DNA of 64,000 bases from Acidobacteriota bacterium (lineage in GTDB: Bacteria; Acidobacteriota; UBA6911): positions 4,960,001 through 5,024,000 of the forward strand of contig OY761556.1 of NCBI GenBank assembly GCA_963664705.1, in the 5' to 3' direction. The translations under genes were made by a program, and so were the position numbers. Positions 4,370 through 48,622 of the stretch are shown here, in pieces (the first letter of the stretch is position 1; each line of letters starts with the position of its first letter). The notes under the pieces were generated by a model. That model saw nothing but the letters and a program-made list of their open reading frames with translations. It had not been told where the DNA came from and did not search any database.

Positions 4370-5809
4370 CTATTCCCGAGCCAGCCGCGTTGGCGCAAGT
4401 TCGGTGTCCTGCTTCAAGAACCGCATCCCTGCCAACCAGAAGGCGCCCGCCACCAGGAACATTGCACCCACTGCCGAGAATGCGGTGGTCATGCCGTAGC
4501 GGTCGCTCAGGATGCCGATTATAACGGGCGAGATTACGTCACCCAGCAGATGAATGACAAAGATGTTCAAGGCAAATGCGGCCGAGCGGATGCTCGGAGG
4601 CGTCACATTCACCAGGATTGTGTTTGTCGGACCGGTGTTGAAAAACAGACAGAAGCTGGCCACAAACAACCAAATCCATATAGTCGGAAATGGCGCGTGC
4701 AGCGTCAGCAGCATAAACGGAAATCCGATCAGCATGGCAACGCCCGAGACCAGGAAGTAGGAGCCGGAGAAACGCGTCCGGAGTTTGTCGCCGACCAGGC
4801 CGCCCAGCAGGGTTGCGGCGAAGCCGGTGACAACTGTGATGGCGCCGAAGATCATTTTCACCGCGACCGGTGCGCCCATTTTTTGCTTGAGGTAGTAGGC
4901 CATCCAGAAGGAGATTCCGCCTATAGCAAAGGTCATCGCTGTCATTCCCAACGTGCAGAGGATATAAGACGGCGTGTGCAGCAGCACCCCATAATCGCGC
5001 CACTGGACCTTGTGCGTACGCATGCCTTTGCCCAAATCCGCCTGGCCGCGCGGCGGCTCCTTCATGAAAAAGCTCCAGATGCCGAGCAGCAATCCGGGCA
5101 CAACCACGACGTAGAACGCCCAGCGCCAACTCTCTGCGTGAATGCCGAGTGCCTGTTCGCCCCAAGCGCCGATGCCGGACCTCGCCACGGCATCGCCGAT
5201 GACGAAGCCCAGCGCGCCGGCCACCGGTATGGCCATGTAAAACCACGCCAGCGCCTGGCCACGCACTTTTACCGGATAAAAATCCGAGATCAGTGTCGGA
5301 GCCACGGGTCCATAGGCCGCTTCGCCGATACCGACGAAACAACGGGTCAGAAGCAGTGCGACAAAGCCGCCCGCCAGGCCCGACGCCCCAGTGGCCAGGC
5401 TCCACAGGATCACGCCCACGCCGACCAGCGCCCAACGCGACCAGCGGTCAGCCAATCGGCCGAAAATCGGCGCGCCGATCGTGTAGACCACCATGAATGC
5501 AGTGCCCAGCACACCAATAAGTGCCAGTTCAGGTTTAAAGCCCAGATGCCCCGCGCACCATTCCTGAAACTGCCGGAGCGCTGGTGAGAGCGCATCGGCG
5601 TTGCCTTTTGGGAAGAAGCTCGCCTGGATGAACTCGACGACGGCGGCCAGCACGTAGCGATCGATGTAGTTGAACATGTTGATCAACAGGAGCAGTATCA
5701 GCGCAGCTCTTGCGCCGGGGAATGGCGTTTTGCGGTCGGCGCCTGAGACTTCCGCCGTGTGTGGGAAAGCAGCCTCCGAATACTCCGCCCCTATATCGTC
5801 GCTCACCAT
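4370..5809 (-). CDS. MFS transporter (spinster-like)
   Basis: NMFNYIDRY, GRLADRWSR motif A, GIGEAAY; about 12 hydrophobic helices. Confidence 0.9.
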   Translation of the reverse strand: MVSDDIGAEYSEAAFPHTAEVSGADRKTPFPGARAALILLLLINMFNYIDRYVLAAVVEFIQASFFPKGNADALSPALRQFQEWCAGHLGFKPELALIGVLGTAFMVVYTIGAPIFGRLADRWSRWALVGVGVILWSLATGASGLAGGFVALLLTRCFVGIGEAAYGPVAPTLISDFYPVKVRGQALAWFYMAIPVAGALGFVIGDAVARSGIGAWGEQALGIHAESWRWAFYVVVVPGLLLGIWSFFMKEPPRGQADLGKGMRTHKVQWRDYGVLLHTPSYILCTLGMTAMTFAIGGISFWMAYYLKQKMGAPVAVKMIFGAITVVTGFAATLLGGLVGDKLRTRFSGSYFLVSGVAMLIGFPFMLLTLHAPFPTIWIWLFVASFCLFFNTGPTNTILVNVTPPSIRSAAFALNIFVIHLLGDVISPVIIGILSDRYGMTTAFSAVGAMFLVAGAFWLAGMRFLKQDTELAPTRLARE

Positions 5810-37002: not shown

Positions 37003-38103
37003 TTATCGCCGTCTATTGGCAAAATGCCTTGAATCGCCCCATTCGCCGTAGGCAATCGTGTCTCCCGCCATAGCTATGCGGGATTCAAGGCACATTTTAC
37101 ATGCGTCGGCTTCTTCATCCAGGCATGGCTTATTTTCATACAGCAGATAATCTCTGCGATATTTCGTTGGCGTCAGATTGGGCATTATGACATTGGCACC
37201 CACCCGTAGCGCCTTTTCCCTTCCTATCGGATCGAGGGTTTGCATGGCCGTGGTTGCCGCAATGTTTATATCCTTCATCATGACGCGAAGGATCGCAATC
37301 ATCCTCAGCGACAACTGAAATCTCTCTGTTCCGGAGAGGAGCTCATTTCGATATTGATATAGCGGCGTGCCCTGGTGCTCGATATAGGGCCCCATCCCGA
37401 CCATATCCACATCCAGATCACGAAAGAAAATCAGATCATCTGCAAGATCGGATATTTTCTGAAAAGGCAAACCGATCATCACTCCAGTGCCCACCTGGTA
37501 ACCGACTTTCTTCAGCGCCGCTAGTGCATCCAGTCGTGATTGGTATCTATGGTTATCGTCGGAGGGATGAAGCCTGCGATACAGCTCCGGATTCGAGACT
37601 TCAATCCGCAAAAGATATCTGTGGGCGCCGGCATCCAGCCAGCGCTGATACGTCTCAAGCGTCTGCTCTCCCAACGAAAGCGTAACGTGCAGCTCATTCC
37701 GAACCATTCGCTGAATGGATCGGATCAGATTCTCGATTCGGGAAATGAATCCAGGGTCCTTGCGTTCGCCTGATTGTATGACAATGGAAGCAAAGCCGTT
37801 CTCCGAGGCATACCTTGCTGCCTGCAGGACTTCCTCATCTGTCATTTCATACCGCGCATTGTCCGGATTCCCGGCGCGGATACCGCAATAAAAACAGTTC
37901 TTTGCGCAATAGCTGGAATATTCAATGAGCCCGCAAAAAAAGACTTTATTGCCTACATAGCGCGCCTTGGTCTCCGAGGCTCTCTGGTAGATTGGGAAGG
38001 CATGATCCTCTCCGGCAGAAAGCAACATAACAATATCTTCTTTGGTAAGAAGATCCTTCTCAAGAATGTCCTTTATTTCCTTAAGCATGGGGAATTGTCG
38101 CAT
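37003..38103 (-). CDS. hydE: HydE-family radical SAM protein
   Basis: GLIEYSSYCAKNCFYCG, RYLLRIE, VGTGVMIGLP, GANVIMPN, YLLYENKPC; start may be 38088. Confidence 0.85.
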   Translation of the reverse strand: MRQFPMLKEIKDILEKDLLTKEDIVMLLSAGEDHAFPIYQRASETKARYVGNKVFFCGLIEYSSYCAKNCFYCGIRAGNPDNARYEMTDEEVLQAARYASENGFASIVIQSGERKDPGFISRIENLIRSIQRMVRNELHVTLSLGEQTLETYQRWLDAGAHRYLLRIEVSNPELYRRLHPSDDNHRYQSRLDALAALKKVGYQVGTGVMIGLPFQKISDLADDLIFFRDLDVDMVGMGPYIEHQGTPLYQYRNELLSGTERFQLSLRMIAILRVMMKDINIAATTAMQTLDPIGREKALRVGANVIMPNLTPTKYRRDYLLYENKPCLDEEADACKMCLESRIAMAGDTIAYGEWGDSRHFANRRR

Positions 38104-38175
38104 GGAAGTGAGTTCGCGTGAAGAGCGGCCGGCAGGAAACTTCAAACTGGATTGACCTGGCGGACCGCGTAAAGG

Positions 38176-39827: not shown

Positions 39828-39866
39828 AAAAAACAAAAAGCCCGTCGAATTTGTCTCGAAGGGCTT
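39828..39866 (-). terminator. intrinsic terminator (attenuator) in the metY leader
   Basis: minus strand AAGCCCtTCGA-gacaaat-TCGAcGGGCTT-TTTGTTTTTT, between the leader ORF and the metY start. Confidence 0.85.
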
Positions 39867-39897
39867 CGTCCGGCTTTGGGATTATTGAATTCCCTGA

Positions 39898-40005
39898 TTA
39901 TGGGAAAGTGCTGCTATGCGCCCCTCCGCAATATCCTGCCGGCGTTGCCGTTTGGTGTGATAGACAACAACAGGTCAGAGTTATTTGGAAAATTGCCTTC
40001 TGCAT
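39898..40005 (-). CDS. Cys-rich leader peptide L2, [35 protein letters not shown]
   Basis: AAAGGG upstream of ATG; TGT-TGT-TGT; terminator about 31 nt after the stop. Confidence 0.75.
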
Positions 40006-40182
40006 CAGGATCAACCCTTTCAACAGCAATACTTTGCTACGATTGTCGCCAGCGCTCCGGCCGCAATGCGATTCAGTCACTAAGGTGCGTTCAAAACGGT
40101 TTATGTGATTATGTTATCGATGGAGGAGGTTTGGCCGACCGGCGAATTTTATTGGAATAGCGCTGCTTGGTCCACGCCGCTA

Positions 40183-40251
40183 TTACGCCGTCGGCGTGCT
40201 ACAACAGCAGGGAAAAATCAAAGGCAGTTCTTCTAAGCATCCCAAATTCAT
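40183..40251 (-). CDS. Cys-rich leader peptide L1, MNLGCLEELPLIFPCCCSTPTA (probably leaderless)
   Basis: TGC-TGT-TGT; ATG lies 6 nt after the -10 box of TTGACA-N17-TATTTT. Confidence 0.7.
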   Translation of the reverse strand: MNLGCLEELPLIFPCCCSTPTA

Positions 40252-40257
40252 GCATAC

Positions 40258-40291
40258 AAAATACGTACATATATCTACTTTGTCAATAGAT
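40258..40291 (-). promoter_or_regulatory. sigma70-type promoter overlapped by a putative Rrf2 operator
   Basis: TTGACA (40286-40281)-N17-TATTTT; ATCTAC-N7-ATAGAT at 40273-40291. Confidence 0.72.
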
Positions 40292-40909: not shown

Positions 40910-40941
40910 TTGACAACTTATAATCTATTATTTATATAGAT
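40910..40941 (+). promoter_or_regulatory. promoter overlapped by a putative Rrf2 operator
   Basis: TTGACA at 40910-40915; perfect ATCTAT-N7-ATAGAT at 40923-40941 over the -10 region. Confidence 0.72.
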
Positions 40942-42531: not shown

Positions 42532-42608
42532 GGCGCCGTACCCAAAATGGAAAGGGGAGGGTCTGCAAAACCTTAATTTTAGCGGTTCGACTCCGCTCGG
42601 CGCCTCCA
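42532..42608 (+). tRNA. tRNA-Cys(GCA)
   Basis: acceptor stem GGCGCCG/CGGCGCC, anticodon arm AGGGT-CTGCAAA-ACCTT, T arm AGCGG-TTCGACT-CCGCT, U73 discriminator, encoded CCA. Confidence 0.92.
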
Positions 42609-42627: not shown

Positions 42628-43050
42628 ATGAAAGTAATACTATCTTTACTGTTGCTCTGTCTATTTAGCGCCTCCTGCGCTCCCAAGCGAATTCAAACCG
42701 GCAAAGTGATCGGTCCATACGCGCCAGCAATCAAAGCCGGAAAAACGCTATATATTTCCGGACAGATTGCTCTTAAACCCGGGACAACGGATTTGGTAAA
42801 CACCAACTTTGAGACAGAAGTAGTCCAGGTGCTGGAGAACCTTGTCGCCTTATTGAGGACAGCAGGGTACAAAACCTCCGACCTTGTCCAATGTACTATC
42901 TACCTTAAAGATATAAATGACTATGCAGAAGTGAATCGGATATACGGCAGCTATTTTGAAAAGGGGCGCACACCAACGCGAACCACCATCGCCGTTTCCA
43001 ATTTGCCGCGCAACGCTCGAATTGAAATTTCAGCAATCGCCTATAAATAA
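42628..43050 (+). CDS. RidA/YjgF-family protein with a lipoprotein-like signal peptide
   Basis: IGPY, LYISGQI, VLENL, PTRTT, LPRNARIEI; N-terminus MKVILSLLLLCLFSASC. Confidence 0.88.
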   Translation: MKVILSLLLLCLFSASCAPKRIQTGKVIGPYAPAIKAGKTLYISGQIALKPGTTDLVNTNFETEVVQVLENLVALLRTAGYKTSDLVQCTIYLKDINDYAEVNRIYGSYFEKGRTPTRTTIAVSNLPRNARIEISAIAYK

Positions 43051-43066
43051 AGTGGGAGAATACGTA

Positions 43067-43414
43067 ATGGCAAGCAATCCGTTACAGACTCAGGAATCGT
43101 ATCCCAGACCCATCAAAATTATTATGGTTGGGGGCCATAAGCGGAGTATGCGCAGACTGGCGGACCGCTGCCGGCAAGAAGGATGGCGAGTGGAAAATCA
43201 CTCTGGAGAAACCTATGGCCGCTGTGGTGAAGAGCTCCGATCTCAAATCGGGCGTTCCGATATTGTGGCAATAACAACGAGAGTGAATAGTCACGGTGGC
43301 ATGTTTATAGCCAAAGCCCTGGCACGCCGCCTTGGTCGAACATTTATAGTCATTCGCCGCGATAATTTTGAGGAACTCAAAGCGGCCGTGGTCGATACCG
43401 AGCGCAGATCTTAG
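43067..43414 (+). CDS. DUF2325-like protein
   Basis: IIMVGG...SDIVAITTRVNSH...AK; GGGAG upstream. Confidence 0.7.
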   Translation: MASNPLQTQESYPRPIKIIMVGGHKRSMRRLADRCRQEGWRVENHSGETYGRCGEELRSQIGRSDIVAITTRVNSHGGMFIAKALARRLGRTFIVIRRDNFEELKAAVVDTERRS

Positions 43415-43464
43415 TCTCAAACACGCGCCGGCTGAAGACCAAACCGCCGTCCGTCAGCGGTTCG

Positions 43465-44157
43465 TTATGCGGTAAGTGCGGCTTTTGTTTGGCGCTCAAT
43501 AAGCGCGCGACGAAGGCGAAGAACGCTGTAAGAGCCAAAAAGTACCACATACATTATTATATTCACGATAACCGTGCCGGAACCGGCAGCAGCAGCCGGA
43601 GCCAAAAACAGGGCCAGATGAACAAAAATGAGAAGGAAGAACAGGTAGGCCAGAGTCTGCACTCGTTTCCAGCGCGCCGGCTCCATTAACCTGCGCACAG
43701 CCCCAAACGAAGTCCCCGTAAGAACGGCAAGTATCAAAGCAGTCACAAACGAAACAGTAATTGAGAGCGCTTTATTTTTATCCAGCCTGCCTTCGCCGGC
43801 CAGAAGCAGCGGGATATAGGTATTCGCATATACAATAATGTGACCAACCGCAAGAAGGGATCCGATTATGGCAAGTTGGCGACGCAAGGGATATAGAACA
43901 GTGCGCGGCCGCGAGCCTTTGGGGAAGACACCCGCAAACATCACCAGGGCAAATAATGATAATGCAATCGCACACCGCTGGATGATAATCATCAGCCAGG
44001 AAAACCTAAAAATGGAATCGTCCACATAGTTCGCAAAGAGATATAGTCCGGTCAGGAAAATCGTCAGCACATAAAACCAAGCCGGCCGCTTCTTAAGGTG
44101 TTTGTGCAGAATAAAAACCATGGCAGTTGTTATAAGCAATGTAAGCGCAAATGTCAT
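43465..44157 (-). CDS. ferric reductase-like/MsrQ-like membrane protein
   Basis: RRQLAI, GH, TS, WKRVQTLAY, VH; about 6 TM; AAAGGAGG upstream of ATG 44157. Confidence 0.78.
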   Translation of the reverse strand: MTFALTLLITTAMVFILHKHLKKRPAWFYVLTIFLTGLYLFANYVDDSIFRFSWLMIIIQRCAIALSLFALVMFAGVFPKGSRPRTVLYPLRRQLAIIGSLLAVGHIIVYANTYIPLLLAGEGRLDKNKALSITVSFVTALILAVLTGTSFGAVRRLMEPARWKRVQTLAYLFFLLIFVHLALFLAPAAAAGSGTVIVNIIMYVVLFGSYSVLRLRRALIERQTKAALTA

Positions 44158-44168
44158 GCAACCTCCTT

Positions 44169-45488
44169 TTACGCACCGGCAGCAGCAGCGCTTGGAGCAG
44201 CCAGTCTGCTCAAGGCACCCAGCAGCCTCGTAATCTCGCCAGGCGTGTTGTAAAAATGCGTCGATACACGCAGTCCTGATACGCCACCCTGATTTGTGGA
44301 ACGGATAATGACCTGTTCTTGCTTTTGCAGCGCCCTGACAAGCTGATCCGGCGGGAGGTTTCCGATACTGAATGTAGTAATCCCGGCACCAAATTGTGGA
44401 TCCTCGGAAGTCCACAGCCGGGTCGCTGGAATCTTCTTTAATCCCCGGCGCAGTTGTGCAGATAACTGCTGCGCCCGCGCTGCAATGCGCTCCTTACCGA
44501 TCATTAGCTGAAGATCTACCGCCGCACTGATGCCACAAAGTGCGGGTATGTTCAGTTGCCCGCTTTTTTCAAATCGAGCCGCGCCTGCTTTTGTTTTTGC
44601 CATAACTCTGTCCTGACCGTTATTCGGATCGTAGTAGCCGAAAAGCGGTTCCACTCTGTCCTGCAGTTCTCTCTTAATGTAGGTAAAACCCGTTCCCGTT
44701 CCCGCAAGCAGCCATTTCTGACCGGGGCTGGCATAATGGTCGACCCCGCTCAAATGAAAATCGAGAGGCACAACTCCGGTCGATTGCGCTCCATCCACGG
44801 AAATCAGAATTCCCTTGCTGTGAGCTAGTTCAGCTAACTCTTTTATCGGCATCAATAACCCGGTTACATACGTGACATGGCTTATAACAATCAACCTGGT
44901 TTTTGATGTGATCTTCTTTTCATACGCAGCGAGGATTTCATCGATCGAATTTGGCAGCGCCGGTTCCTCCGCTCGTATGATTCGTATACCCTTCTGCTTT
45001 TCCAGCGCCTGGTATGCCTCAACAGGTCCAAAGTGTTCCCATGCACCGATAACAACCTCGTCTCCGGGCTGCCAGTGGAGTCCCTTGGCAAAGATATTCA
45101 TTCCTTCCGTCGTGCTGTGTGTTAGGGCGATTTCATCCGCATCCGCTCCCGTGAATTCGGCAATGCGTTTGCGTACGCCTGAGAGTTCCTCTTGTCTGAA
45201 GCTGTTGGTCGGGTCCGCGGCGAGTTCTTCATCATACCGTCTGTGCACTGCCAATACGGTATTGGGCGCAGGTCCCAGCGTTCCATTGTTCAGGAAAACA
45301 AGTTTGCTGTAGAGGCTGAATCCCTCGCGTATCTTCTCCCAATAAGCCTCATCGGGCCTATCAACCGATACTTTTGTCTCGTGCACCGGTTCCGGCGAGG
45401 AAATGGTTTGGGCAACCGCGCTGCCTGCAATCGCAGCGGCGGTGCCGGTAAGAAACAAGCGTCTGGAAAGCTGATATTCAGATCTCAT
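44169..45488 (-). CDS. Tat-exported class V PLP enzyme (C-S lyase / isopenicillin-N-epimerase-like)
   Basis: SRRLFL Tat motif; FLNNGTLG, STTEG, DGAQSTG, PGQKWL, RVSTHFYN. Confidence 0.85.
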   Translation of the reverse strand: MRSEYQLSRRLFLTGTAAAIAGSAVAQTISSPEPVHETKVSVDRPDEAYWEKIREGFSLYSKLVFLNNGTLGPAPNTVLAVHRRYDEELAADPTNSFRQEELSGVRKRIAEFTGADADEIALTHSTTEGMNIFAKGLHWQPGDEVVIGAWEHFGPVEAYQALEKQKGIRIIRAEEPALPNSIDEILAAYEKKITSKTRLIVISHVTYVTGLLMPIKELAELAHSKGILISVDGAQSTGVVPLDFHLSGVDHYASPGQKWLLAGTGTGFTYIKRELQDRVEPLFGYYDPNNGQDRVMAKTKAGAARFEKSGQLNIPALCGISAAVDLQLMIGKERIAARAQQLSAQLRRGLKKIPATRLWTSEDPQFGAGITTFSIGNLPPDQLVRALQKQEQVIIRSTNQGGVSGLRVSTHFYNTPGEITRLLGALSRLAAPSAAAAGA

Positions 45489-45513
45489 AATGACCTTTAG
45501 AAAGGGAAAAGGC

Positions 45514-46068
45514 TCAAGGTAAAAACACTTTTATGTACTTATCCACATCGGTATCGGCGAATGACTTGACGAGCACAGCAGATGGCTCAGTCCTGCCATT
45601 CAGTTTCCGATCAGACGACCATTGCTGAGTATCGATAACCTCGATTGCCTCTCCAGGGCATGTGGTTGCACATGCTGGCAATTTGTTTTTGGCAAGACGA
45701 TCAATACACAGATGGCATTTCTGCATTTTCCCGTTTTTGCCGTACTTCGGAATTTCATATGGGCATGCCTTCAGGCAACTCCGGCAACCGATGCATTTGG
45801 CGGCGTCCACCGTGACAATTCCGTTCTCTGCATGTTTTGTTATTGCACCTGCCGGACAGATCCCGGCGCAAGCCGGCTTCGCACAATGCAGACAGGAATG
45901 CGGCAGCGAAATATTGATGACCCGCGTCGGAGTTTCCTCCCAATGGACCAGGACTTTGCGCCACATCACACCGGCTTCCACGGAATTTGCAGCCTTGCAG
46001 GCCACTTCGCAGGCGGAGCATTGTACGCAACGTCCCAAATGAAGCCGAAAACCTAATTGTTTCGCCAT
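45514..46068 (-). CDS. 4Fe-4S dicluster subunit (DmsB/PsrB-like)
   Basis: CVQCSACEVAC, CLHCAKPAC, CIGCRSC, KCHLC, PACATTCP. Confidence 0.92.
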   Translation of the reverse strand: MAKQLGFRLHLGRCVQCSACEVACKAANSVEAGVMWRKVLVHWEETPTRVINISLPHSCLHCAKPACAGICPAGAITKHAENGIVTVDAAKCIGCRSCLKACPYEIPKYGKNGKMQKCHLCIDRLAKNKLPACATTCPGEAIEVIDTQQWSSDRKLNGRTEPSAVLVKSFADTDVDKYIKVFLP

Positions 46069-46102
46069 GTCTTATCCTTTCACCCGTCAAAACATTGCTT
46101 CT

Positions 46103-48538
46103 TCACACCTGCTGCAGTGGCTGTTTCCGCACCTGGACCAGCGTCTGGCTCGACATGGCGGTCACAATCGGATCAAATGCCCTGGCGCTTGTGTCATACA
46201 TGGAGTTTGTATTCGCACCGCCATTGAGTACTGAAAGGTTAGGCTTACCCAGCGCGTCACATCCCTCCCACCATCCGTGCAGTGCCATCACGGTATCTCT
46301 GCGGATGCCAGGATTAACATCCGCTTTCAGGCGAATGGTGCCATGCGGCGACTCGACAACCACCCAGTCCCCATGTCTTATGCCGCGAGCCTGCGCCGTT
46401 TCGGGATGTATCTGCAGGGTTGGATCGGGCGCCACTTCCCGCAGGTGTGGAAGATTGCGCAACCATGAAGCGTTATAAACTTTGGACGTATGGAAATCGG
46501 AAAAAAGCAGAGGGTACTTGTTCAGCAGTTCCGGCGTAGCGGTCAGACTTTCGGGCGGTTCGCGCCATTCCGGCAGCGGGTTGAACCCGGCTTCTTCAAA
46601 TGTCGTGTTATAGATCGCCACCTTTTGCTGCGGCAGATAGGGCGCCTTGGAAAACCTGGAACTGCGCGCAGAAAAAGCCTGCTCGTATTTTTCGTAGACC
46701 GGCTGCCGGGCATTTTGACGAACTATCCCCTCGGGCTTCCTGAGCAGCTCTTCCAGGGTAATGCCATGCCCTTTCAGTTCCTCACGCTTCCACTCTTCAA
46801 CGCTGCCATGCCAGAAATGCTTGCCGTACCCCATCCGCGCTCCCAGCTCAATCCAGAACTCGTAATCGGACTTGGATTCACCTATTGGCTCAATAACCCT
46901 ACGGCGCGGCATGATCCAATTACCGCGCCCTTCGAATGGATGATCCACCTCGTACATGGTGGAAATTGGAATGACGATATCCGCATAATTCATGTCTGCG
47001 GTGCGAGCCACATCGAGGACTACATAGAAATCCACCTTCTTTAGCGCTTCCAAAACGGTCCTCGTGCCACGAGTGCTCGTTACAGGCTGCGTGCCGGGCG
47101 CGATAATTGTGCGAATCGGATAAGGTTTGCCTGTGAGCACGCTTTCGAAAATCCGGTAATATGCGGAAGTGGGACTATTGCTTGTCTGAAAGGGGAGCGG
47201 AAACTCAGGGGCAACAAGTCTGTTGACCTGTTCCTGAGTATACACGAGGCTGTCCCGAGACTCACCCGGGCCCGGTCTCCCACTCTGCTTGGACTTTGGA
47301 GCCGGAGCGCCGGGACCGCCGAGTCCTGCAAAGCGGCGAGGCCCATCGGGAGATCCGGAATTGCCGGACCTCCCGATTCCGGGACTTCCAAGCCCTTCCA
47401 TTCCTCCGGGACCAGCACTTAGGAGATTTCCACCTCGACGATCCAGATTTCCGGTTATTGCAATCAGAATCGCGACAGATCGCACGGCATCATTGCAGCT
47501 CGGAGAGTGTTCAAAACCGTTGCCGGTCTCAATGCAGGCGTGCTTGGTTGTGGCAAAGAGCCGGGCAACTTCGCGCGTCTGCGCTGCCGGCACGCCGGAA
47601 ATCCTCTCCGCCCACTCCGGTGTATATTTCTGAACGTGCGGAACAAGTCGGTCAAACCCATAGGTCCACTTTCCGACGAACTCTCTGTCGTAAAGTTTTT
47701 CGGTGATCACAACATTCAGCAGAGCCAGAGCGAACGCCGCATCGGTTCCCGGGCGAATAGGAACCCAGATATCCGCAAGAGCCGCATCCGGCTCCATAGT
47801 TGGTTTGACTGCAATGATCTTTACACCGCGCGCCTTCGCTGCCAACAATTCACGAACTCCCCCCTTGGCGCTCCCTGCGTAGATTGGCTGCTTCGCCCAG
47901 ATGATCAACAACCTGGTATTCTGAATATCAGCGGTTGGCGAACTCCCAAGCGTATACTGAAAAGAAAAGCCCTTTTGCATGGCGCAAATTCCGCTGTGCG
48001 CATAATTTGGGCTGCCGTGCGCGGCGAGAAATCGTCGAAAATAGGAGCTATACGATCGCGCAGCCGGGGAGAGTATCGCAAGCGACTCCGGCCCAAATTG
48101 CTCCTTCTGTTCCTTCAGTTTTGATGCAATCGTATCGAGCGCTTCATTCCAGGTGATACGCTTGAACTTGCCTTCGCCCCGTTCTCCAACCCTCTTCAGC
48201 GGATAACGCAATCGCTGGGGTGAGTAGACCCACTGCGGTGCAGCATGCGCCTTCCCGCAATTTTTGCCCCGATTCAGCGGAGCATCCTTCAGCGGTTCAA
48301 TCCCAACAAAACGTCCATTGCGCACAACAGCGTTGATGCCGCATCCCTGGCTGGGGCCGCACATCGCACACATGGTCGGGACAAGCTTTTCCGCTGCTGC
48401 GGAAACCAAAGGCGTTGTCTCGGCCGCATGAAGCAGTGCCAACGGTTCAACTGTGCTCCAGAGGGCCGATTGAACACATATCGCGCCTGCCGCTCTCAAA
48501 ACCTCGCGCCGGGTTATTTCACTATCCTTAGATTTCAT
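46103..48538 (-). CDS. Tat-exported molybdopterin oxidoreductase catalytic subunit
   Basis: TRREVL Tat motif; CAMCGPSQGC...C; SGICAM (probable Cys Mo ligand); PIRPGTDAA; C-terminal MGD domain. Confidence 0.9.
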   Translation of the reverse strand: MKSKDSEITRREVLRAAGAICVQSALWSTVEPLALLHAAETTPLVSAAAEKLVPTMCAMCGPSQGCGINAVVRNGRFVGIEPLKDAPLNRGKNCGKAHAAPQWVYSPQRLRYPLKRVGERGEGKFKRITWNEALDTIASKLKEQKEQFGPESLAILSPAARSYSSYFRRFLAAHGSPNYAHSGICAMQKGFSFQYTLGSSPTADIQNTRLLIIWAKQPIYAGSAKGGVRELLAAKARGVKIIAVKPTMEPDAALADIWVPIRPGTDAAFALALLNVVITEKLYDREFVGKWTYGFDRLVPHVQKYTPEWAERISGVPAAQTREVARLFATTKHACIETGNGFEHSPSCNDAVRSVAILIAITGNLDRRGGNLLSAGPGGMEGLGSPGIGRSGNSGSPDGPRRFAGLGGPGAPAPKSKQSGRPGPGESRDSLVYTQEQVNRLVAPEFPLPFQTSNSPTSAYYRIFESVLTGKPYPIRTIIAPGTQPVTSTRGTRTVLEALKKVDFYVVLDVARTADMNYADIVIPISTMYEVDHPFEGRGNWIMPRRRVIEPIGESKSDYEFWIELGARMGYGKHFWHGSVEEWKREELKGHGITLEELLRKPEGIVRQNARQPVYEKYEQAFSARSSRFSKAPYLPQQKVAIYNTTFEEAGFNPLPEWREPPESLTATPELLNKYPLLFSDFHTSKVYNASWLRNLPHLREVAPDPTLQIHPETAQARGIRHGDWVVVESPHGTIRLKADVNPGIRRDTVMALHGWWEGCDALGKPNLSVLNGGANTNSMYDTSARAFDPIVTAMSSQTLVQVRKQPLQQV

Positions 48539-48622
48539 TTTCGAATTTCCTCTGTAGCGACGCACGGATTTTTCGGATCATCTCCAATGGAGATGATCCG
48601 GGGACATTTCAGAATTCGTCTC

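Follow-up and report, generated by a model that had tools for sequence, protein, structure and literature searches.

Results

Two cysteine-rich frames precede metY

The window, by which we mean the whole 64,000-nucleotide stretch analysed here (contig OY761556.1 of an Acidobacteriota bacterium, positions 4,960,001 to 5,024,000), carries on its minus strand an intact gene for a metY-type O-acetylhomoserine/O-acetylserine sulfhydrylase (39763-38468; 431 aa; TIGR01326 above cut-off), preceded by two short open reading frames, L1 and L2, each with three consecutive Cys codons. L1 (40251-40183, minus strand; 22 codons from an ATG at 40251; Cys-Cys-Cys at 40209-40201) is probably leaderless and begins 6 nt behind a sigma-70-type promoter (40286-40258, minus strand) made up of TTGACA (40286-40281), 17 nt and TATTTT (40263-40258). 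L2 (40005-39898, minus strand; 35 codons from an ATG at 40005; Cys-Cys-Cys at 39972-39964) has the sequence AAAGGG 9 nt upstream (40020-40015) and is followed by an intrinsic terminator with a U-tract (39866-39828, minus strand; -13.3 kcal/mol). A sequence check found these four elements, and every other one listed in the initial annotation, in place on the minus strand; absent from that annotation were a cysK remnant at 40076-40032, an outer helix of the L1 hairpin and a palindrome over the -35 element.

When the 602-nt intergenic region was shuffled in blocks of two bases, one ATG-started short ORF with three consecutive Cys arose in 33 of 20000 shuffles and two such ORFs in 0 of 20000. Genome-wide, 145 short ORFs lie at L1-like spacing behind a TTGACA; eight of them have two consecutive Cys and three have three, and all three of the latter precede sulfur genes. 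The promoter by itself was not above chance (2 found vs 3.1 expected), and a simple terminator scan did not pick up the terminator at 39866-39828. The riboswitch alternative that the initial annotation had allowed for finds no match in Rfam: the leader hit no family, giving just two weak unrelated matches (E up to 5), and L1 and L2 of five related loci likewise gave no match, SAM-I occurring elsewhere in those loci; the genome's single SAM-I match is also located away from the leader. The stretch was present unaltered in one contig in sequencing runs X2 and X3 (one sample, possibly the source). A low-depth contig in X5, in which position 40012 at the start of L2 is fused to the central part of a transporter gene located at a distance of 1.45 Mb, is most likely a chimera and was rejected.

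Besides this metY, a second one and two cysK genes are intact in the genome. Three consecutive Cys in a short upstream ORF were seen neither at any of 29 other metY-type loci nor at the genome's second metY, and two consecutive Cys at a few, so the ordinary metY copies of the genus are without such a leader. In G015 (L023) a short ORF with Cys-Cys-x-Cys ends 59 nt before metY, and in G006 (L048) an apparent remnant of a metY start precedes an Rrf2-like gene and cysK. Near the leader of the window, a tRNA-Cys gene (42532-42608, plus strand), one of three in the genome, lies 2.3 kb away, and a HydE-type radical SAM gene (37003-38145, minus strand) follows metY on the same strand.

A cysK remnant between L1 and L2

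On translation, window positions 40076-40032 (minus strand) yield 15 residues, 12 of which are identical to residues 20-34 of CysK from the related genome G002; the cysK start codon, its ribosome site and the remaining gene are missing from the window. A DNA search of 101 genomes matched G002 twice, once at an L1 homologue before an intact cysK and once at a site inside cysK. The order in G002 is L1-cysK-L2-terminator, with a Cys-rich frame of its own after cysK, and the DNA 3' of its cysK stop aligns with window positions 40035-39741 (score 144, against a shuffle maximum of 95.5; n=500). In G009 the order is L1-cysK-cysE-L2-terminator, followed by DUF2061 and sulfate-reduction genes. Moreover, a metagenome pattern scan that specified promoter, ATG and L1 core only, with the TTGACA spacing as part of the pattern, recovered 18 loci (about 12 distinct leaders), and a cysK start came next in 18/18. 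Five of the 18 contigs end before the L2 position; L2 is present in 10 of the 13 loci that extend past cysK(-cysE), the exceptions being L240, L243 and L244. Four loci representing two distinct ones (L231/L235 and L234/L238) have the complete order promoter-L1-cysK(-cysE)-L2-terminator-metY.

A tree of 29 metY proteins, which left out loci under 68% identity, grouped the window metY with the L231 and L234 copies at a support of 100/99. Its synonymous distance to these sister copies is about 2 and dN/dS is 0.02-0.04; that the grouping persists at such a distance implies that the leaders have been retained over a long time. The intact serial layout in relatives further implies that the order of the two Cys leaders is old and that their adjacency in the window is a deletion scar: L1 and L2 touch here because the cysK between them collapsed. 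Hence, the two frames in front of metY are most likely the result of deleting the cysK that separates them in relatives. The initial annotation had taken them for two serial cysteine sensors that would sharpen the response of metY. Its notion of two leader types in series is borne out, in relatives too, whereas that of a tandem purpose-built to sharpen metY control is not, since the frames adjoin through the collapse of cysK. Elsewhere, operon decay is recurrent: cysK has internal deletions in L232 and L233, cysE is a remnant in L231 and G007 (L092), and L2 is reduced or frameshifted in L243 and L232, some of these cases being possibly assembly errors.

L1 belongs to a conserved family of leaders

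L1-type copies precede cysK in 4 of 29 cysK loci, and one also stands before the sirohaem/sulfate-assimilation operon of the window's own genome (G000). A model built on L1 matched 5/51 family genomes and 5/137 class genomes, all from one genus, and detected a copy in G013 although this was outside its training set. Besides the window leader, G000 has two further L1-type leaders, one before cysK-cysE (L069 3601-3705) and the one before the sirohaem/sulfate-assimilation operon (L090, C1:747457), together a small Cys regulon without a protein, and a SAM-I riboswitch follows cysE. The G013 copy (L217) stands before a DUF2325-like gene that has a molybdopterin oxidoreductase nearby, and window positions 42956-48565, 3-8 kb from the leader, hold genes like those of this DUF2325/molybdopterin neighbourhood together with a class-V aminotransferase. 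A pattern scan of genome contigs returned at least 119 loci, of which none among the matches listed had cysK or metY nearby; these were dismissed as chance matches.

L1 has the hallmarks of a polycysteine leader, that is, a short ORF with at least two consecutive Cys codons at the head of a cysteine/sulfur operon, and its copies share the conserved motif Cys-Cys-Cys-Ser-x-Pro. The TTGACA of 19 L1 copies is found 29-34 nt ahead of the ATG, a spacing that was preset by the pattern for the metagenome copies; the distance from the -10 element to the ATG is 6 nt in the window and 7-10 nt in genome copies, and no ribosome site was seen. From this spacing and the lack of a visible ribosome site we infer leaderless translation. 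The initial description of L1 as a leaderless Cys ORF is supported: L1 belongs to a conserved Cys-leader family and is probably leaderless.

The hairpin after L1 had been described as one of arms AATAGCG (40184) and CGCTATT (40162) on the minus strand without a U-tract. The missing U-tract holds for 17/17 copies, though the named arms are just the inner part of a longer conserved hairpin (40195-40134, minus strand; 62 nt with the outer helix), which is closed by GCCGAC/GUCGGC in all 17 aligned copies. The stability of these hairpins ranges from -23 to -37 kcal/mol, that of the window (-23.9 kcal/mol) being the second weakest of 17. Pairing was found in 87% of alignment cells, a value equalled by 1-2/500 shuffles and inflated by kinship of the copies. 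A C/U-rich tract follows on the 3' side (40133-40122, minus strand), which may be an anti-Shine-Dalgarno sequence for the lost cysK or the start of a Rho loading site. The tract pairs with the cysK ribosome site of its own locus over at least 5 bases in 9/14 loci; pairing was no better with own sites than with those of other loci, and covariation gave p = 0.16. In stalled-ribosome folding, the unpaired value of the cysK site rose just slightly, from 0.35 to 0.43, and was higher in 8/15 comparisons, two pairs of which are duplicates.

The L2 terminator and inner hairpin covary, and L2 is a predicted switch

Thirteen L2 copies were aligned, eight from within the cysK operon and five heading other operons behind a TTGACA promoter of their own; operons headed by L2 include sulfite-reductase-type genes, and copies occur in two other genera. 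The L2 model matched 5/51 family genomes, adding two new genera, and among 150 phylum genomes it matched the genome of the window alone. Weak matches in G003, G006, G014 and G018, and a second one in the genome of the window, are not L2, and G009 alone was genuine. The leaders with their own promoter are those of L230 (783-987, minus strand), L233 (473-674, minus strand), L242 (3686-3848, plus strand), L250 and L251; three lie back to back with L1, and downstream is a sulfite-reductase-type gene, a metY-like gene or cysD.

L2 combines several features of a classical attenuator, namely a short ORF with a ribosome site and a run of cognate codons, followed by a terminator before the regulated gene. 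In its terminator and in an inner hairpin located near the stop codon (39933-39899, minus strand), 90% of cells are paired and 8 pairs have changed on both sides (0/500 shuffles for pairing and for score), pair counts that are inflated by kinship of the copies. The earlier call of L2 as a frame with a Shine-Dalgarno sequence and an intrinsic terminator is therefore upheld, and extends to a conserved family in which the terminator covaries.

The putative antiterminator had been placed in GAGGGGC (39926-39920), and this proved to be the wrong strand: the sequence lies in the G-rich 5' arm of the covarying inner hairpin. It can pair fully with the terminator arm (7/7) in the window only, and over 2-6/7 bases in 12 relatives; family-wide this pairing is at shuffle level (355/500), and it lies 6 kcal/mol above the best fold. 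Instead, an L2 strand located 8-12 nt after the last Cys cluster repeats the 3' arm of the terminator, which makes it able to pair with the 5' arm. In the window, the family position of this strand is 39955-39938 (minus strand) with a predicted partner at 39874-39862. Of ten possible pairs, 8-9 can form in 10 copies, 7 in L229, 6 in G002 and 6 in the window; overall 81% are paired, against 21-51% when the strand is slid (11/500 shuffles; one compensatory pair).

Nascent folds with the ribosome at the Cys codons gave an arm capture probability of at least 0.85 in 10/13 copies and 0.47 in the window, as compared with 0-0.62 across copies with the ribosome at the stop. Blocking the terminator of the window costs 11.2 kcal/mol with the ribosome at the stop and 7.0 kcal/mol with the ribosome at the Cys run, a predicted shift of 4.2 kcal/mol; shifts of at least 4 kcal/mol were obtained in 7/13 copies and smaller ones in 6/13. 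In equilibrium folding the terminator wins in 13/13 copies under every condition, so the switch would have to be kinetic, which is how classical attenuators operate. The window L2 is among the most altered copies, with one Cys cluster instead of two, 28/39 conserved positions kept and a helix from 39949-39938 that invades just 3 bases of the terminator arm; the terminator itself retains 20/22 conserved positions. On these folding models, L2 likely still switches in the window, though in weakened form.

A candidate Rrf2 operator over the promoter

Upstream of the promoter lies a gene for an Rrf2-family regulator (40827-40366, minus strand; 153 aa; TIGR00738 above cut-off). The protein scores below the cut-offs for CymR (89.8 vs 195 bits) and IscR (78.4 vs 207.55 bits) and is assigned to the superfamily only. 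No close orthologue was found in 29 genus genomes, the best proteins reaching 39-44% identity in 8/29; none was found in the 18 metagenome loci either, and viral contigs gave no Rrf2 gene. The palindrome ATCTA-N9-TAGAT occurs at four genome sites, and since about four are expected by chance the count itself is uninformative. As to placement, one site covers the -35 of the L1 promoter (40273-40291), and a second is found at a distance of 100 nt upstream of the Rrf2 gene (40923-40941); a third (L257, ~5110-5128) overlaps the TTGACA in front of an operon that includes a NifB-like radical SAM gene and a YedE-family transporter, and the fourth is inside a coding region. Going by palindrome and placement, the motif looks like a candidate operator of the neighbouring Rrf2 protein.

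Discussion

How the metY leader may work

The reading that we prefer, and hold with about even confidence, is that of a collapsed operon in which L2 and its terminator are a working cysteine-sensing attenuator of metY and L1 is probably an orphan that once controlled the lost cysK. It builds on what was observed: a remnant of cysK survives, relatives have the layout intact, the metY copies are sisters, and leaders and terminator are conserved. From this we infer the switching. When Cys-tRNA is scarce, the ribosome would stall on the three Cys codons of L2, whereupon the strand 8-25 nt past these codons would pair with bases before and in the 5' arm of the emerging terminator, and RNA polymerase would continue into metY; with sufficient cysteine, the ribosome would reach the L2 stop, this pairing would be removed and the terminator would form. 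More tentatively, in intact operons L1 may gate cysK, with the C/U tract past the hairpin hiding the cysK ribosome site, a site that is gone in the window. At the promoter, an Rrf2 repressor is predicted to act as a further layer of control.

The mode of action of L1, through Rho or by hiding a ribosome site, decides whether L1 still matters in the window. With the same deletion history, L1 could be of the Rho type: its translation would open the hairpin and expose a C-rich site, a stall would hide it, and metY would need two stalls in series. We regard this, in essence the model of the initial annotation, as possible but tentative. The absence of a U-tract from every copy agrees with it, as do the poorly conserved stretch of 60-155 nt that separates the hairpin from the cysK start, the two genes of the genome that score above the rho cut-off (G000 C1:643143 and C1:3893937), the presence of L1 at the head of operons other than cysK, and the intact frame, Cys run and helix of the window L1. 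The 50 nt 3' of the window hairpin have a composition of C17:G4, a C excess that is strongest in the window and falls in the top 0.7% of genome windows; the excess is, however, modest in five other copies, where 5-10% of genome windows reach it. Further, the fit of the C/U tract to the cysK ribosome site in 9/14 loci speaks for the other mode, and the L1 core (31/35 kept) is conserved no better than the dead cysK remnant (22/24), so that no selection on L1 after the loss of cysK is evident. We are doubtful of, and put at well under an even chance, the arrangement in which two unlike ribosomal Cys sensors, the one at the 5' end leaderless and of the Rho type, the other intercistronic and of the terminator type, act in series under an Rrf2 operator and were fused by the loss of cysK.

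The switch in L2 could also have decayed, leaving the terminator as a fixed damper and a second metY copy kept low, at a level set by leak-through and the Rrf2 repressor. Weakening of the antiterminator and inner hairpin, loss of one Cys cluster, the spare metY and cysK genes in the genome, and the truncation of cysK or cysE in L232, L233, L231 and G007 and of L2 in L243 are what such decay would leave behind. We nevertheless consider it unlikely, because metY is intact and under a dN/dS of 0.02-0.04, the terminator is conserved, and L2 has kept its start, frame and Cys run along with the predicted 4.2 kcal/mol shift. It is very improbable that L1 and L2 are functional small Cys-rich peptides, binding metal or sulfur, with hairpins that just end or protect small RNAs: the conservation of Cys-Cys-Cys-Ser-x-Pro among L1 copies would suit a peptide, but its bases double as the closing helix of the hairpin, the N-termini, lengths (22-37 codons) and stop positions vary freely, and the frames without exception share the strand of the sulfur-assimilation genes that immediately follow them.

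Two families of Cys leaders not described before, both lineage-restricted, emerge from the analysis, together with an operon type that uses both. In such operons, how severe a cysteine shortage must be to elicit a response could differ between the early genes (cysK, cysE) and the late ones (metY or sulfate reduction). The copies range from intact through partly deleted to collapsed and show how tandem attenuators can arise through gene loss, which calls for caution with other 'tandem leader' assignments. Should both L1 and L2 be active, the window would hold a natural, sharper two-step amino-acid switch born from a deletion.

Comparison with known systems

What is new here is the occurrence of two different Cys-leader types, one of them intercistronic, within one operon; each of the parts is of a known kind. 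Classical leader-peptide transcription attenuators include those of trp and his. Our search of the openly accessible literature returned no report of these leaders or of two Cys leaders per operon, and the accessible portions of PMC4833913, PMC2965389 and PMC13236596 contain nothing specific to them. As far as the accessible text of the respective source describes it, L1 resembles the mycobacterial polycysteine leaderless sORF attenuators (Ms5788A, 'Cys ribulon'; bioRxiv 10.1101/834739) in being a short ORF at the predicted transcript start with a Cys run and without a terminator, and in heading several cysteine/sulfur operons per genome, three in G000. It differs in belonging to another lineage, the likeness being one of description, and in that its Cys run lies ~200 nt before the next ribosome site, past a 62-nt hairpin, with a terminator-type leader next. 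The predicted Cys leader peptides of actinobacterial cys operons, which are without terminators and for which a pyrimidine tract was proposed as a Rho site (PMC1262725), share the Cys run, the lack of a terminator and the pyrimidine tract with L1; its hairpin, however, is conserved and covarying, whereas those leaders are reported, in the text available from that source, without conserved hairpins.

L2 in turn is akin to classical leader-peptide transcription attenuators such as leuL (PMC5314783) and to uORFC-8-2, a predicted Cys attenuator with a terminator before cysS in Rhodobacterales (PMC8632094), in its regulatory codon run, a predicted antiterminator strand that overlaps the ORF and a U-tailed terminator. 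Judged against the available descriptions of these systems, it departs from them by standing between cistrons, where it follows cysK or cysE, in addition to operon heads, by usually having two Cys clusters, and by its targets, metY or sulfate-reduction genes. The operon type of the window as a whole recalls the pyr operon of Bacillus subtilis, where three attenuation regions lie upstream of pyrR, pyrP and pyrB (PMC7430163), as both have attenuators in series, some of them between genes; in pyr, as the accessible part of that source describes it, the PyrR protein is the sensor and the three attenuators are alike, whereas here two unlike sensors would be read by the ribosome.
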